Of a DNA stretch of 64,000 nucleotides, positions 655 to 46,272 are shown piece by piece. Each line of letters opens with the position of its first letter. Position 1 is the stretch's first letter. Position numbers and translations under genes: made by a program. This DNA is from a phage. The DNA lies in the sequence record PZ534534.1. One strand, 5' to 3'. The notes below the pieces were generated by a model that was given only the letters and a program-made list of their open reading frames with translations, was not told where the DNA came from and made no database searches.

Positions 655-3600
655 TGCCAATTGCAATGATTGATAACATCGTTGCTTCTGCAAGATCTTC
701 AAGTTATGACTGGAACGCATCCAAGGCAGCTCTGGCTGACAGCCTGAACACTGTTACCACCAGAACTCTGGATAAGATTTTCGAGGGAAACAAATCTTAC
801 AGAAGTCAGCAAGATAGACAAAAGCTTCTCAGATCTTCTGCTGCACCTTGCTCTGTAGTGTATGGGAAGACACGTACATCTGGATTGCTTGCGTTTTTGG
901 AGCAGGACAGGGACAGAACCCTTCATTGTGCTATTGTTCTTGCCAATCACCCTCTGGAAGGTATAGAAGATATACTTATCGACGGTAATCCTATTTCTTC
1001 GTATGGGGATTTGGTATCGTGGGAGCTACATAACGATAGAAAAACCTCTGATCCTTTCATGGGCACACACTGCCCATCGTGGTCACCGGACATGATAGGT
1101 AGAGGGATCAGTTGGCTACGGGTCAGCTTTAGGTTTGACCCTAACAAGTTTCCTTTTGGGTTGCCAAACGTCACACTCGTCAAGGTTGGTAAAAAATGCT
1201 ATGATCCTCGCACTAGTAAAGAGGTGTATACCAATAACGCTGCCTTGGTGATTCTGGACTATTTAAGAACGTACCTTAAATGTCCTGACGAAACCATCAA
1301 CTGGGAGTCCTTCAAGGAGGCTGCCAACATATGCGACGAGGCTGTAAGAAACGCAGACGGAACCAGCGAGCGTCGTTACACAATTAATGGCGAGTTCGAT
1401 ATGGATGAGGCCCCAGCAAGTATTATGGCAGAAATGCTGAAAGCTTGTGGCGCAGATCTCAGCTATGTAGCTGGTAAGTATGGTTTGCTGGTTGGTGCAT
1501 ACTATGGCCCGGCAACAATGACACTGAGTGAGGATTGTGTCTGTGGTGAGGTCAAGATCTACCCGGAAGCCTCATTTGACAAAAGATCCAACACAATAAC
1601 CGGCAGATTCACTAGTCCGACCAAAGGGTATTCTGAAACAGATTTTCCATCAGTGTTTGTCCCAGAGTGGATAGAGAAGGATGGAGAAAGAAAGATAATC
1701 GATATAGACTATCGCTTTGTTACCAGCCCTTATCAAGCTCAGCGTGTTTCTGCAATCTTCTTAAGACGCGCGAGAGCTGGCAGGATTATTGAAGTCACCT
1801 GCAATATGCGAGGTTTTAAATTTAAACCTGGTCGTTACGTTACAATGAACCTTCCAAGTATAGGTATAGTGGGCCAAGAAATGAGGGTTCTTGAATGGGA
1901 GTTTACCAAAAAGGGTGGTGTCAAGGTAAAACTTCGTCAAGATGCTAAAGAGTGGAATGATGCCACAGGGCAACTTCCGGATTCTGGCAATGTAGATATT
2001 CCGATATCTCCATCTGGTGTAGCTCAACCGCAAAACTTCAGATACTCCGTTCTCCAAGCTGGGGAAGTAACTCACGGTGTTTTGGCTTGGGACAACGTTG
2101 GGACTTACGCTCAAAATATTGTGCAGGTAAGAAAGAACGGAGAGATTGTTTGGACAGCACAGACAGTTGAGCAGTTTGTCAGAGTAGAAGGTTTGACCAA
2201 AGGGTCATACACAGCAACCGTGGTTGCAACATCTTATAAAGGTGGTGTATCTCCAGAAGCGTATTGTGAGTTTAACATTCAGGCACCTGAAGCTCCGGTT
2301 TCTGTAGAGGTTAAGCAAGGATACTTTGCTATCACCTTGATTCCGCATAGTAGGGATTTAGCAAGTGTTAGCACCCAGTATGACTTTTGGACATCCGGTA
2401 TGACAAGGTTGCCAGACACCAGTGATGCAACCGTTACTTCAAACGCCACCCGTATGGGTGTTGGTTCAACTTGGACATCTGAAGGTCTGCAGAACGATAA
2501 GGTTTATTATTGGTATATTCGAACCACAAACGCTTTTGGTAGTTCTCAGTTTGTAGAATGCGCTGCACGCTGCTACACCTCTATTGAGGATTTGATGCCT
2601 CAGATAGATGCTGAATTCAAAAAGACAGAAACTTATAAAGAGTTGATGAGCACTTTGGATTCCTCTATTGAAGAGGTTGAAAATCGTGTCACAGAACTTA
2701 ACAGGTACATGGATGGTAGGGTAGATGAAGCGTTCCAGCAACTTGGGGACAGAATAGGTGCGGTAGTTACAGAAACAACTCAGAAGTTTGAAGATGTCAA
2801 TGGTAACATTACAGCGCTGGATAGGAAACTTGTTGCTGCACAGAACAAATTCACCAACGATCTGAACACTGAAAGTGGCAGACTGGCATCTCTAATCGAG
2901 ACAACCAATAAAGCAACTACTGATCTTCTGAACAAAAAGACAGAGGCTTTAGATGAGAAATTGGTTGCCGCCAAAGGTGAGCTGGTAGAGCAGATAGGGG
3001 GAGTTGAGAGCGGGTATTTAGCCGGAGATAAAACTCTGGATGGTAAGATCAATACTCAGAGAACAGAACTTGACGCAAGCATCTTGAGCACTAACCAAGC
3101 CACTGTAGATCTTTTGAACAGGACATCTGAAACTCTGGATCAAAAGATTAGTCAGACAAACGCGACGGTATCTAAAAACTATACCACCCTTGACGGCAAG
3201 ATAACTACCGCAAAAACTGACCTCAACACCTTGATTGCCAATACCAACAAGGCCACCACTGACTTGTTGAATCAGAAAACATCTGCACTGTCAGAGCAAA
3301 TAACTTCTGCACGTGGGGAGATCTCTACCAACAAGCAAGCGATTGATGCTTTGGATGGAAAACTGACCTCCACAAAAACAGCGCTGGATGCTACAATTTC
3401 CGATACCAACAAAGCCACTGTGGACCTTATCAACGGCACAGCGTCAGCTATTCGTCAAGAACTTGCTGTCGCTAAGCAGGAGATCATCAATGATGTTGGG
3501 GATGTATCTGAGCTTAGGGCTGCAGTAGCTACAACATCTAAGGCTGTAACCGACTTAGAGGGTAAAGTAAATGCTCAATGGGGCACAAAAATACAGGTAG

Positions 3601-41586: not shown

Positions 41587-42321
41587 ATGAACGAGTTCAG
41601 AGACCACTGTGTAGCCAACCACCTGTGGTCAGAGATACTGGAGTATGACGGTCAAAATCTTTTTTGGAAGATAGACATTCTGGCAGGTAGCGGTGTAGGA
41701 TATGTTAAAACTTCAGCAGGCTCCAGAGCTGACAAGGGGCAAGATGCTGATGGCAGGCCTGTAGTTAGTCTAGGAAAGCATTGCACTAAAGGTGCCCACG
41801 TCATAATCTGGGAAATGTTTAACGGCCCTGTACCGGAAGGGTATGAGGTTGACCACATCAAGGAGATAAGGGAAACAGGTGGTGTGGCTGATAACAGTAT
41901 TCAAAATTTGCAACTACTCGAGCCCACAGATAACAAAAAGAAAAGTTGCAAGATACCTCGTAGCAACAACAAATCTGGCAGGGTCGGGGTGCACTATTCT
42001 GAAGAAAGAGATGCATGGATAGCTCAAGGCACAGACTCTGTAGGGGAAAGGGTCTGGCTAGGCCAGTACAGAACTTTTGAAGAGGCAGAGTGGGCAAGAA
42101 AGTTCTTCGAAGATAATGGTTTTTCGCACAAGAGTGGAAGAGCCGTGCAGTATAATAATACCAGCGGTTGCTCAGGGGTGAATTGGGATAAAACCCATGA
42201 AAGATGGGTAGCCAGAATTTATGTAGATGGTAAAAGGAAATGCCTTGGGTATTTCAAGAATAGGGACGATGCAATAGCTGCAAGAAAGAATGCTGAGAAG
42301 AAACAGGAGGGGACAGTATGA
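41587..42321 (+). CDS. free-standing HNH endonuclease with AP2-like DNA-binding repeats
   Basis: HNH core GAHVIIWEMFNG...EVDHI...NSIQNLQLL; C-terminal GVHYSEERDAW-type repeats. Confidence 0.55.
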   Translation: MNEFRDHCVANHLWSEILEYDGQNLFWKIDILAGSGVGYVKTSAGSRADKGQDADGRPVVSLGKHCTKGAHVIIWEMFNGPVPEGYEVDHIKEIRETGGVADNSIQNLQLLEPTDNKKKSCKIPRSNNKSGRVGVHYSEERDAWIAQGTDSVGERVWLGQYRTFEEAEWARKFFEDNGFSHKSGRAVQYNNTSGCSGVNWDKTHERWVARIYVDGKRKCLGYFKNRDDAIAARKNAEKKQEGTV

Positions 42322-44741
42322 GTAATTGGTGCTTCGATCTGGAGGCCTCTGGGCTTTTGGAAGACCCAGATCTTTATTATCACTGCGGTCTGTTTAAAGA
42401 GCTGAATAAGAACCGTTTTATGCTGTTCCTTCCTCTAAATGACCGCACACACTACTCCGAGGAGGATATAGAAAAGGCCAAGAACTTCATTCTGGCAAAG
42501 AAAACTCTTTATAAAGATTTTGAAGTTCGCATAGCAGATTTTTCGGAGTTGGAAGGTTGGCTTACAGGCAATTCCGACTGGTCACCAACAGCTTTGAACT
42601 GCCATAACTGCTACAGTTATGACTTTATGCTGATGGAAAGATTATCCGGTATTCATTTTGATATGTTCCGTGATCCTAAATGCATGGGGACTATCAACGA
42701 CCACCAGGTTAACCTGTTTGATACGTTGGCGATGAGTCGAATTTTGTGGCCTGATCGCCCTTTACCAAAAGGTTGTCCGGACTCTGTATTCAACCCGGTT
42801 ACTAAGAAAATGCAGCCTGTTGGTCCTCACGGCCTTATGGCATGGGGCTACGCCCTTGGTAACCAGAAAGTTCAAATTGATGACTGGCGCGATCTTCCGT
42901 TGTGGAAGTATGTGGATCGTGTATTCGAGGACGTTATCATCCAGGAGCTGCTCTGGAAAGAGCTGGTAGCGGAATCAAAAGGTGTATTCTACGGCAAATC
43001 TGACATGCAGAACTTTATGTACGATCCTGCCAAAGAGAAGCCGAAAGGGTTCAAGAAGATCACCTGGAAGAACGCATTACGCCGAGGCATGCTGCAGCAC
43101 TTCCTGATGGAGCTGCAGGCCCGTCAGGGTGTGTATTTCGACATAGACGGGGCTATTGCTTTACGTGACCGCTGTGATGCGTGGATGAAAGAGATCGCTG
43201 ATCGTGTTGAACCTCAACTTCCTTTAAAAGAGTTATCAATATCTCAGCGGCCTAAATTCCCTGAAAAGCCGTTCAACCAAGATGGGACAATTTCCAATAA
43301 TGGCTGGAAATGGTTAAAAGATAAGCTTGGCTACCCTGTAGACATGAGCGCTTTAGAGTTCAAAGCCCCACCTAAGCGAGCATTTACCTCTACAGGAGAT
43401 GTCAGTAAGATAGGGATAAAATGGTGTGAAGAGATGGGCTGCAAAGACCCCGATAAGATGGCTGATTTCTTGAGAGGCTATATTAAGGGCACCTCCACAC
43501 CACAACCTTTACCTAAAGAGCTAATGGATCAGGCAATAAGTGATCTACAGCAGAAGCGAATGCCGGACTGCAAGATACCTATGAAAATCAGCAACCAGGA
43601 CGACATTAAGCGATACCTGATCAGTGCTGGTTGGCTTCCGACAATGTGGAGAACTAAGGATGTAACTAAAGACAGCAAGAAGAAAGCTCTACCTGATGCA
43701 GATGTTGATGCACGAGTATATGCATATATGGACGAGCTTTTAGAGTCAGAGTATTGTGACCTGATTATCAACTTCTGGAACAAAACTGATGCTAAGTTCC
43801 AGACAACCGTGCACAAGTTCCGAAGCTTTCCTAACTCCGAAAGGATTAAAAAGGAAGTATTCGGGAAAATACGTAGAAAAGCTAGGGCACTTATTACTTC
43901 TCCGCAACTGAAAGATACGTTTGGACACCTATGCCCGAATCTTGAAAAATTGAACGGAGAGATGGCTAAAGATATCGTCTTGTGGTTATCATTGCGAAAC
44001 CGCAGATCGGTCCTTGATCCAATCAAGGAGGATAAGGTTGATACTGGTCTTCTTAATCACCCACGTTTGAAGATTGACCATAAGCTTCCTGCTAAAAGTT
44101 CTGGGTTAACAAACACTTCACGACAGAAACACAGTATTTGTGCAAACATGCCTAAACCATCTCCTAAAGTGGTTATGGGTAAAGAGATGCGTAGTCTGTG
44201 GGGTGTTCCTCCTGGATACTTTCAGATCGGTATTGACGGGTCCAACTTAGAGCAGCTTATCGGGGCTTGGGGTGCCTTTGAGTTCGACAACGGCTTGTAT
44301 TATGATGTTGTAAGTAACGGGGACGCACACCAAAACAATGCTGAGGCATATACAAAAGTAGCAGGCAGAGAGGTGTCTCGTAACGACGGTAAACCTATCA
44401 CGTATGGGGTTATGTACGGGGCACAAAAAGATAAAGTTGCAGATATGCTGGACATCTCTCCAGAGTTGGGACAAAGGGTAATCGATGCACTTTGGGATGC
44501 CAACCCTGGTCTTAAGGGGCGTAAAGAGGATCTGGAGAAATTCTGGGAAGCAACGGGTAAGAAGTTTATCTACTCTTTTGATGGTCATGCTATCTGGACC
44601 CGATCTAAACACTCTTTACTTAATGCATACCAACAGAATGGTGGTGCATCGCTGTGTGACTTAGTTGGGATACTCATGCACCACCAAATGGTGAAGCGTG
44701 GGTGGTACGATGAAGGTGTCCGTCGTATTATCTATTACCAT
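42318..44741 (+). CDS. DNA polymerase, family A, exon 1
   Basis: Exo I motif FDLEASG; motif A IDGSNLEQ; motif B RNDGKPITYGVMYG; frame ends ..IIYYH then in-frame stop inside intron. Confidence 0.65.
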
Positions 44742-45584
44742 AAATAACATTGTGGCTTCATAGAGTGATCTATGTCGAATAACCTCTTTAATTGACGGGA
44801 AAGCTAAGTTGACTTTTACACCTGAGTATGGTAAAAGCTCAATATGCTAATCCGCAGCGAAGACTAAAGGGGTGTAGTTAAAATGGCTAGAACAGCTGAT
44901 TATCACGGGTATACCGTGTTTGATGATGGAACAATACCTTTATCGAAACGTGATCATACAACAATGTTTTGTTTTGATAATGGTAGAGGTTACCTTTGCG
45001 TAACCATGCTAATCGAGGGGAAGCAGTGCACAAAAGGTGTCCACCACCTGGTTGCTGAATGCTTTGTATCAAACCCGGATCCTGAAAGGCTCACATGGGT
45101 GAACCATAAGGATGGGAATAAGTACAACAATGCATACTGGAACCTGGAATGGACCACCCCTGGTGGAAATATCAAGCACGCCTATGATAATGACCTCAGA
45201 GTAAGGCCAGTTGGTGAGTATAATGCCAACGCTGTGCTGACAGAAGATGAGGTAATAGAGATTTGCGAACTGTTGCAGAGTGGTCTACGACAATGCGAGA
45301 TTAGGGATCTTGGATATCCTTATGAGACCGTCAGGGCTATAAAGCAAAGAAGACAGTGGAAACATATCTCTAAAAACTACACCTGGTAGTAACGTTCAGA
45401 GACTATCGAAAGCATAGCTCCAACACAGGTTGGTGTGAAGAAGCGAGTAGAGTAGGCCAGCAAGTGCGGTCGAAATGGGAGGTGCCTTGTTACCAAGGCA
45501 GTGAGGTAGTCCGATCCATACAGGAAACTGTATGGCTATGCACGTAATGGTGCGGGGTAGCTTAACGACCTACCTGAACAGATG
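44742..45584 (+). mobile_element. group I self-splicing intron in DNA polymerase gene
   Basis: Exon ends in U; GTGG guide-like sequence at 44752; GTTCAGAGACTA at 45394 and TAGTCC at 45507 (P7-like); ends in G; splicing restores YHDE. Confidence 0.65.
44883..45389 (+). CDS. intron-encoded HNH homing endonuclease
   Basis: GVHHLVAECF...WVNHKDGNKYNNAYWNLEW pattern typical of phage HNH homing endonucleases. Confidence 0.7.
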   Translation: MARTADYHGYTVFDDGTIPLSKRDHTTMFCFDNGRGYLCVTMLIEGKQCTKGVHHLVAECFVSNPDPERLTWVNHKDGNKYNNAYWNLEWTTPGGNIKHAYDNDLRVRPVGEYNANAVLTEDEVIEICELLQSGLRQCEIRDLGYPYETVRAIKQRRQWKHISKNYTW

Positions 45585-45938
45585 GATGAGTACCAACTTC
45601 AGGTCCCTGACACGCCTAAGTATAAGACTGTGTACACCTTCGACACAATTGAAGAATTGGAAGCATTTAAGGCAGAGCAGGAAGCCAAACTTCATGTGTT
45701 CGACGGTCATAAGTACAAAAAGGCACGCAAGGATGAGGACGGAAACGAAGTGGTTGACAGAGACGGAAACACGGTGTACGATCCTATCCTGAACGATGAC
45801 GGAAAGCTTGAACTTATCTGGAGCCCTGTGGGTGAAATGGTGGTGCATTGCTTCTGGCAAGCTTCTAAAATGATGGGAGTCCCGTTCCAGATCACAGGTG
45901 AATACTTGTGTGGTCGTAATTGGGGTGATTGTCACTAA
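45585..45938 (+). CDS. DNA polymerase, family A, exon 2
   Basis: Begins DEYQLQV, completing motif C HDE; C-terminus GRNWGDCH matches terminal His signature of T7-type polymerases. Confidence 0.6.
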   Translation, partial: DEYQLQVPDTPKYKTVYTFDTIEELEAFKAEQEAKLHVFDGHKYKKARKDEDGNEVVDRDGNTVYDPILNDDGKLELIWSPVGEMVVHCFWQASKMMGVPFQITGEYLCGRNWGDCH

Positions 45939-45987
45939 TGTAAACTATCAACACATGGAAGTGTTGTTGAGCAAAGAGGAGACTTTT

Positions 45988-46272
45988 ATGGTAGTAGAAC
46001 CAACAAAAACATTTACATCCATGACTATTCCTGTTATTATGCAGGTGGAGTGTGTTCAGGTATCTCAAGTGTGGCCTGGCACCAAAATCCCAACAGGGCC
46101 TGATTTCTTTCAGGTTGGGAAAGTGTACAATGTCTGGAAGGCACCAGATTGTTACCCTTTCATTAAAGATGACCGTGGAATGTTGTGGTATCTTGGAAAT
46201 GATTTGACACTGCACCTTGGGAATGCTATTATTGCAGTATTCAGACTTAACAAGAAGGAGACCGATCAATGA
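45988..46272 (+). CDS. small protein, paralog family member
   Basis: ATG 45988 after AGAGGAG; KVYNVW...DDRGMLWY pattern shared with neighbouring small ORFs. Confidence 0.4.
   Translation: MVVEPTKTFTSMTIPVIMQVECVQVSQVWPGTKIPTGPDFFQVGKVYNVWKAPDCYPFIKDDRGMLWYLGNDLTLHLGNAIIAVFRLNKKETDQ

Follow-up and report, generated by a model that had tools for sequence, protein, structure and literature searches.

Group I introns of subgroup IA2 that carry an HNH endonuclease gene have been known in phage polymerase genes since those of SPO1 and phiI/W31 were described. One of the polymerase sites concerned, site 881 in the E. coli numbering, is taken here to lie between H881 and D882 of Pol I, H881-D882-E883 being motif C, in alignment with H653-D654-E655 of the T7 enzyme. 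In T7-like phages this site is occupied by the phiI/W31 introns, which are of IA2 type and hold the HNH open reading frame in P6a, with a ribosome-binding site that is said to be embedded in structure (PMC3428280). The polymerase introns of SPO1, SP82 and Bastille interrupt the region that codes for the fingers subdomain, at site 674 in the same numbering (PMC3428280). In Pectobacterium phage CB7, a Certrevirus, the HNH-bearing polymerase intron CB7_50 has been demonstrated to be spliced in vivo by RT-PCR and Sanger sequencing (PMC7344957). Moreover, two Vequintavirus records of the BASEL collection, MZ501073 (HeinrichReichert) and MZ501094 (MaxTheCat), give the polymerase as a joined CDS, the intron boundaries having been set by comparative annotation (Maffei et al. 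2021, PMC8594841), and in the paper on the rV5 genome the terminase gene is the only one for which introns are mentioned.

The element described here occupies positions 44742..45584 of a 64,000-nucleotide stretch of phage DNA, hereafter the window; it is of an already known kind, lies at an already known site and is listed as an intron in records of near-identical phages. Compared by description with the phiI/W31 introns, it shares with them a family A polymerase as host gene, insertion between the His and Asp of HDE, the IA2 type with P7.1/P7.2 and an HNH gene in P6a, whereas it resides in a 135-kb myophage of the Vequintavirinae and they reside in T7-like podophages. The introns of SPO1, SP82 and Bastille, which encode I-HmuI, I-HmuII and I-BasI, respectively, have in common with it the group I type, the family A polymerase and an I-HmuI-type HNH nickase, but they use another insertion site and belong to phages of Gram-positive hosts. 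CB7_50 is found at the same YYH|DEY junction and has a homologous core, with the same P1, P7, J8/7, P9 and 3' tail; the introns of CB7 and phiTE are, however, 687 nt long, carry another HNH lineage whose ORF begins inside the P5'/P4' core, and have P7.1 and P5 extensions unlike those of the window intron. The BASEL element is 96.5% identical to the window over the 1.7-kb locus, and subtracting 2778 nt, the coding length of the intron-less phage naswa, from the BASEL CDS spans leaves 842 and 276 nt for the introns, in agreement with the boundaries found here; what those records supply is annotation.

Over the 1.7 kb that surround the intron, identity is 99.8% with Escherichia phage phiWec189 and 94-99% with some 119 records from rV5-like myophages of the genus Vequintavirus. 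The source is a Vequintavirus, that is, an rV5-like E. coli myophage of the Vequintavirinae with a genome of 135 kb. All genes of the neighbourhood lie on the plus strand and comprise, in order, a primase/helicase-like ORF of 692 aa, a free-standing HNH-AP2 ORF (41587..42321), the polymerase itself, which starts at 42318, and small ORFs. A tRNA scan found none, and tblastn of both HNH proteins against the 64-kb window gave no extra paralogues; neither HNH ORF had a match in an NCBIfam search.

An initial annotation had proposed that a group I intron with an HNH endonuclease gene splits the polymerase of this phage at its catalytic HDE motif. We agree with it, and assign a probability of about 95% to the reading in which 44742..45584 represents an IA2-type group I intron, mobile and self-splicing, that carries an HNH gene and is inserted in motif C of the polymerase. 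The insert is 843 nt long, lies on the plus strand, starts with AAAUAA, which brings an in-frame stop, and ends with G45584; it contains in-frame stops from its second codon on and matches the group I model, and on these grounds the readings as an intein or a group II intron were set aside.

Exon 1 (42318..44741, plus strand, 808 codons in the ORF list) ends in ...RRIIYYH with U44741 as its last base, falls in PHROG 17, DNA polymerase (E=4.7e-91), and aligns to residues 468-653 of T7 DNA polymerase. Left unspliced, the polymerase ORF extends over 42318..44747 and its C-terminus reads ...RRIIYYHK*: after the His codon (44739-44741) come the six bases with which the insert opens, AAA TAA, and these add one Lys and then the stop. 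Exon 2 (45585..45938, plus strand, stop codon 45936-45938) encodes DEYQLQV...GRNWGDCH. When 44741 is joined to 45585 the junction becomes ...TATTACCAT|GATGAGTAC, and the product is a protein of 925 aa, collinear with that of the intron-less alleles. Its alignment with T7 DNA polymerase extends from T7 residue 468 through 'yyHDEyql' / 'wvHDEiqv', so that the HDE of motif C, H809|D810-E811 against H653-D654-E655 of T7, is present only after the exons are joined; in the same way the match to Pfam DNA_pol_A covers profile positions 173-263 with exon 1 alone and 173-349 with the joined exons. The proposal that joining restores YHDE is thus confirmed by two alignments which cross the junction in the joined form only. 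The point of insertion in this family A polymerase gene falls within motif C, after the codon for His and before that for Asp (YYH|DEY).

The C-terminus had been called T7-type, a likeness that was verified in part only. Family A polymerases end in ...NWxxxH, which is the basis of the likeness for the ...GRNWGDCH of exon 2, and PHROG 8888 'DNA polymerase' is covered by exon 1 at positions 1-185 and by exon 2 at positions 185-295; this profile is the sole cover of exon 2, which, compared alone with solved structures, gave noise only and no significant match.

The boundaries proposed for the insert are supported from outside and from inside the element. Intron-less relatives, whose exons are 97-98% identical to those of the window, are uninterrupted exactly at the equivalent of 44741/45585, where they read ...TATTACCAT GAC GAA TAT CAG... 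The landmarks that the initial annotation had picked out were all recovered: the intron follows the exonic U44741, GTGG is at 44752-44755, GTTCAGAGACTA (in RNA GUUCAGAGACUA) is at 45394-45405, TAGTCC (UAGUCC) is at 45507-45512 and the terminal base is G45584. P1 (44738..44755, plus strand) is formed by exon CCAU (44738-44741) and the intron bases AA with UUGUGG (44750-44755), around the loop AUAACA, and U44741 makes its wobble pair with G44752. P10, read from the sequence, consists of 4 bp between exon 2 GAUG (45585-45588) and CAUU (44748-44751). Together, P1, P10 and the terminal G are consistent with the boundaries 44741/45585 and with no others. The bases of P1 and P10 do not vary among 13 relatives, and covariation is therefore neutral on both helices, speaking neither for nor against them; the terminal G is found in 15/15 relatives and the exonic U with its wobble is invariant in 13-15 of them.

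A covariance-model search had been suggested as a check, and its outcome depends on the allele. At gathering thresholds Rfam finds nothing in the whole 64-kb window: the window copy reaches 29.4 bits with Intron_gpI (RF00028), against a gathering score of 50. The copy is below the threshold owing to the HNH cassette of 528 nt in its P6a, which the model fails to bridge in the Rfam alignment; the 5' strand of P7 is also misplaced there. Alleles of the same site without the ORF pass the threshold clearly, with 72.5 bits for JLBYU08 (insert of 329 nt), 64.7 for MaxTheCat (276 nt) and 91.2 for Avunavirus 18-1-2 (317 nt). The low score of the window copy is what could be said for a chance resemblance, namely an unrelated insert in which group I-like words occur by accident. 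Yet Intron_gpI is the sole match in the 64-kb window even at a permissive threshold (E=2.7e-5 locally, 0.0015 window-wide; no second intron was found at that threshold), the ORF-less alleles score 64.7-91.2 bits, and 30/50 pairs of the core show compensatory changes, as detailed below. We give this explanation no credence.

For the comparison of structures, 15 introns were extracted from the YH|DE site and 13 distinct cores were aligned for covariation, one row being phiTE, which is 93.9% identical to CB7 over the locus. Following the plus strand, P2 is the hairpin CAUAGA / UCUAUG (44759..44774), with 6/6 pairs compensatory and 100% paired. The 5' strand of P3, CCUCUU (44783..44788), pairs with GGGAGG (45477-45482), 3/6 pairs being compensatory and all 100% paired. 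The P4-P5 domain (44793..44856) was placed by the Rfam alignment: P4 joins UG(A)CGGG (44793-44799) to UCCGCA (44851-44856) and occurs in two classes, CGG/CCG and CUG/CAG, which differ by a G-C to U-A exchange, and the P5/P5a/P5b extension (44803-44847) comes from the MFE fold only. P6 is formed by GCG (44857..44859) with CGU (45393-45395) and exists in four variants, GCG/CGU, GCC/GGU, GGA/UCU and GGU/ACU. After J6/7, UUCA, the 5' strand of P7, G.GACUA (45399..45405), pairs with UAGUCC (45507-45512), the P7-like word of the initial annotation; its 6 pairs are 100% paired and 2 are compensatory (U-A to C-G; G-C to A-U). The region that separates P7 from the 3' strand of P3 holds P7.1 (45406-45451), read by inspection only, a GUA linker (45452-45454) and P7.2 (45455-45471), whose pairs covary. 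The P8 hairpin (45483..45500) has 6/7 pairs compensatory, and it is followed by P9 (45516-45535), closed by a GAAA loop, P9.1 (45540-45553) and P9.2 (45555-45574), all three of which covary.

Over the 13 introns, P2, P3, P6, P7, P7.2, P8, P9, P9.1 and P9.2 comprise 50 pairs, which are 98.5% paired and in which 30/50 are compensatory; in slid-partner controls the corresponding values were 34-43% paired and at most 8 compensatory pairs, and 0/500 shuffles reached the observed covariation. The P3/P7 pseudoknot is among the covarying helices, and the assignment to group I is thus borne out by these helices and by the Rfam scores of the ORF-less alleles. The MFE z-score of an ORF-less allele is modest, -2.16. 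P7.1 and P7.2 linked by GUA are a hallmark of subgroup IA2 (PMC3428280), and by this arrangement, in which P7.1 is read by inspection, the intron is classed as IA2-type. In the RNAalifold prediction, which is pseudoknot-free and was run without the exon, the 3' strand of P7 was paired to the guide region instead; we rejected this as an artefact because the canonical P7 shows compensatory changes and 100% pairing.

The HNH endonuclease gene claimed for the insert is present as an ORF of 168 aa (44883..45389, plus strand), located in the loop of P6a. It belongs to PHROG 59 'HNH endonuclease' (E=1.5e-36), and its best match among solved structures is I-HmuI (PDB 1U3E, E=3e-5), the cores being aligned as vnHKDGNKyNNaywNLEWtT / vdHKDGNKdNNlstNLRWvT. 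Relatives of this protein are present in 517 phage records.

The 5' strand of P6a, ACUA...GGGGUGUAGUU (44863..44879, plus strand), pairs with 45375-45390, AACUACACCU..UAGU, in a long-range stem with a cofold energy of -18.7 kcal/mol. This stem takes in the Shine-Dalgarno region of the HNH gene on its 5' strand and the HNH stop codon on its 3' strand, and equivalent stems of different sequences are found in five other ORF-bearing introns (Av-05, GEC_vB_MG, CR9, A73 and SPA01). Where the window has these 528 nt, P6a of the ORF-less alleles consists of a hairpin of 14 nt, CAUCC-GAGA-GGAUG. The stem may serve both to bring the two halves of the ribozyme together and to restrain translation of the endonuclease; since the ribosome-binding site and the stop codon of the HNH gene are paired in it, translation of the ORF and folding of the ribozyme probably compete. 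A similar restraint on translation has been suggested for the phiI/W31 introns (PMC3428280).

The only serious alternative is that the polymerase is a split gene which does not splice, an HNH cassette having divided it into polypeptides of 809 and 118 aa that assemble after translation. Split genes of this kind have a reported precedent in Aeromonas phage Aeh1, in which NrdA is said to be split by mobE. Many GenBank records do annotate two polymerase CDSs and an HNH gene at this locus, and in 15/15 relatives the last three bases of the intron, ATG, TTG or GTG, lie in the frame of exon 2 and could in principle act as its start. Against such a start, no Shine-Dalgarno sequence is found before exon 2 (upstream of 45582), so the separate initiation signals that a natural two-gene split would show are missing. 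In the scan of 44500-46100 no plus-strand promoter-like site falls within 390 nt 5' of exon 2, the nearest on that strand being at 45164-45191, within the HNH ORF; the same scan gave no terminator-like sites, and its total was not above that of shuffles. As for the apparent start codon, its terminal UG is expected from the required G and the base that precedes it, and the lack of C at the third-last base among about five independent variants has, by our own estimate, a chance of about 24%. The behaviour of CB7 bears on both sides: one of its HNH insertions, in another gene, did not splice, but the intron homologous to that of the window does (PMC7344957). The ORF-less alleles keep a structured RNA of 276-329 nt, which simple insertion of a cassette leaves unexplained, and the ribozyme core covaries. 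We regard the unspliced split gene as very improbable. By analogy with the CB7 homologue at the same site, the window intron is expected to splice.

The proposed course of the reaction would be that of a group I ribozyme. The pre-mRNA would fold into the structure P1-P9.2, and an exogenous guanosine would attack after U44741, which the GUGG guide holds in P1. Exon 1, once released, would then attack after the terminal G45584, aligned by P10, and ligation at CAU|GAU would give a single 925-aa polymerase with HDE intact.

The joined exons used as query retrieved 117 phage records, and an evenly spaced sample of 60 was classified by the state of the site: 30 were empty, 17 had the ORF-bearing 843-nt form, 10 the 276-nt form and 2 the 329-nt form, with 1 unresolved. 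Phages whose exons are 97-98% identical include both occupied and empty sites, interleaved with one another. The YH|DE site is filled in at least six genera, Vequintavirus, Avunavirus, Seunavirus, Certrevirus, Plateaulakevirus (Aeromonas phage TS9) and Pakpunavirus (Pseudomonas phage SPA01). In Vequintavirus the first codon of exon 2 is GAC in 6/6 empty alleles and GAT in 8/8 occupied ones, GAT being the codon that improves P10, and codons 2-4 of exon 2 read either GAG TAC CAA or GAA TAT CAG among the occupied alleles. Co-conversion tracts of differing length would give such variable flanking codons. Two small phages, picked for a related HNH gene or a partial match to the intron, offer no same-site comparison: one has its intron at another polymerase site, and in the other the HNH gene adjoins the collar gene.

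Homing of the intron would proceed in mixed infection, where polymerase alleles that lack the intron would be nicked or cut by the HNH enzyme close to the insertion site, and repair would copy the intron and a short flanking stretch of exon into the empty site. It could be supposed instead that the intron is real but its mobility extinct, the HNH protein being inactive or without a target and the polymorphism reflecting vertical descent and loss; the Pfam HNH_3 match of the ORF is in fact under the cut-off (17.7 bits against 24.8), and ORF-less derivatives exist. The ORF is, however, intact, with 95-100% conservation across some 31 records, its catalytic core aligns with that of I-HmuI, the interleaving of occupied and empty sites occurs among nearly identical phages, and the flanking exons resemble co-conversion tracts. 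Loss of mobility is consequently considered unlikely, and the protein is predicted to be an endonuclease that may act on the empty polymerase site.

The alleles may also bear on how the endonuclease gene was acquired. When the P6a loop is removed, the cores of JLBYU08 and of the window are identical at 314/315 nt, with 1 difference. The introns of phiTE, CB7 and TS9 carry another HNH lineage in the same intron backbone, 38% identical over 53 aa and in the HNH core only, and a second ORF-less intron lineage, about 69% identical, is found at the same position in Vequintavirus. Invasion of introns by free-standing endonuclease genes was reportedly proposed by Bonocora & Shub in 2009. Because one core, differing at 1/315 nt, is found with either a 14-nt hairpin or a 528-nt HNH cassette, Vequintavirus may offer a snapshot of the gain of an endonuclease gene, in which one intron was invaded repeatedly and independently by HNH genes and, moreover, spread across families to one polymerase site; we hold this reading tentatively, at a little short of even odds.

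For annotation, these results mean that the locus is correctly recorded as coding for a single enzyme of 925 aa, with its catalytic Asp and Glu encoded on exon 2. For phylogeny, homing and co-conversion confound trees built from the polymerase locus. Finally, the three-state polymorphism among near-identical phages makes Vequintavirus a convenient natural system for work on homing and on the gain of endonuclease genes.

The same intron backbone, inserted at the same site as in the window polymerase, carries in phiTE, CB7 and TS9 a second HNH lineage of about 130 aa, unrelated to that of the window (802..1185 of the phiTE locus, L013; 2743..3126 of the CB7 locus, L017; and 792..1184 of the TS9 locus, L015). 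The start codon of this second-lineage ORF falls within the P5'/P4' core (AUGGGUAAUCAGCAG), and therefore ribozyme and coding sequence overlap. The window also contains a free-standing ORF of 244 aa with HNH_3 and AP2 domains, located on the plus strand at 41587..42321. This ORF is flanked by the primase/helicase and polymerase genes, and its stop codon overlaps with the start codon (ATG, 42318) of the latter. With 35% identity over 60 aa, it is only a distant relative of the HNH in the window intron.

Several Vequintavirinae polymerases (L008, L009, L010, L013 and L017) have a second intron upstream, and therefore their gene is in three exons, whereas the window polymerase has one intron only. 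In Avunavirus 18-1-2 this upstream intron lies at 914..1117 of the locus (L008) and scores 47.5 bits with Intron_gpI, whose threshold is 50 bits. Three matches to the joined-exon query, phita32 (H46), 241Ecol014PP (H81) and VB-EcoM-WM (H85), align in 3-4 pieces and have 1-2 kb of extra sequence from further insertions, all within this 1-kb part of the polymerase gene; the insertions may represent more introns or endonuclease genes. The 43-kb phage ECO104 4-5-2 has an HNH-bearing group I intron (L007 1841..2527, Intron_gpI 51 bits) in a different family A polymerase and at another site (...SASNP | QQLPR...), and its likeness to the window intron is limited to the P9-3' tail.

All 15 introns considered, that of the window (45582..45584) and 14 others extracted from L001-L017, end with a triplet (ATG, TTG or GTG) that is in the reading frame of exon 2, which is why gene callers let a second "polymerase" CDS begin at this point. 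That start is not preceded by a Shine-Dalgarno sequence. The triplet probably arises as a side effect of the terminal G, which the intron requires, and of the U preceding that G; its occurrence in all introns is not statistically notable.

Sixteen related records (MG0656xx) are named "Campylobacter phage", with C. jejuni as stated host, and are 95-99.6% identical to the E. coli Vequintavirus locus of the window; their host labels look doubtful.

The start of exon 2 in the window (45585..45596) was compared with the corresponding positions in L003 and L020-L024. In Vequintavirus, CAT is followed by GAC GAA TAT CAG in all six intron-less alleles, while the first exon-2 codon is GAT in eight of eight intron-bearing alleles, continuing with either GAG TAC CAA or GAA TAT CAG. 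Intron presence is thus perfectly associated with one synonymous base, and this association may reflect P10 fit, co-conversion or target-site immunity.
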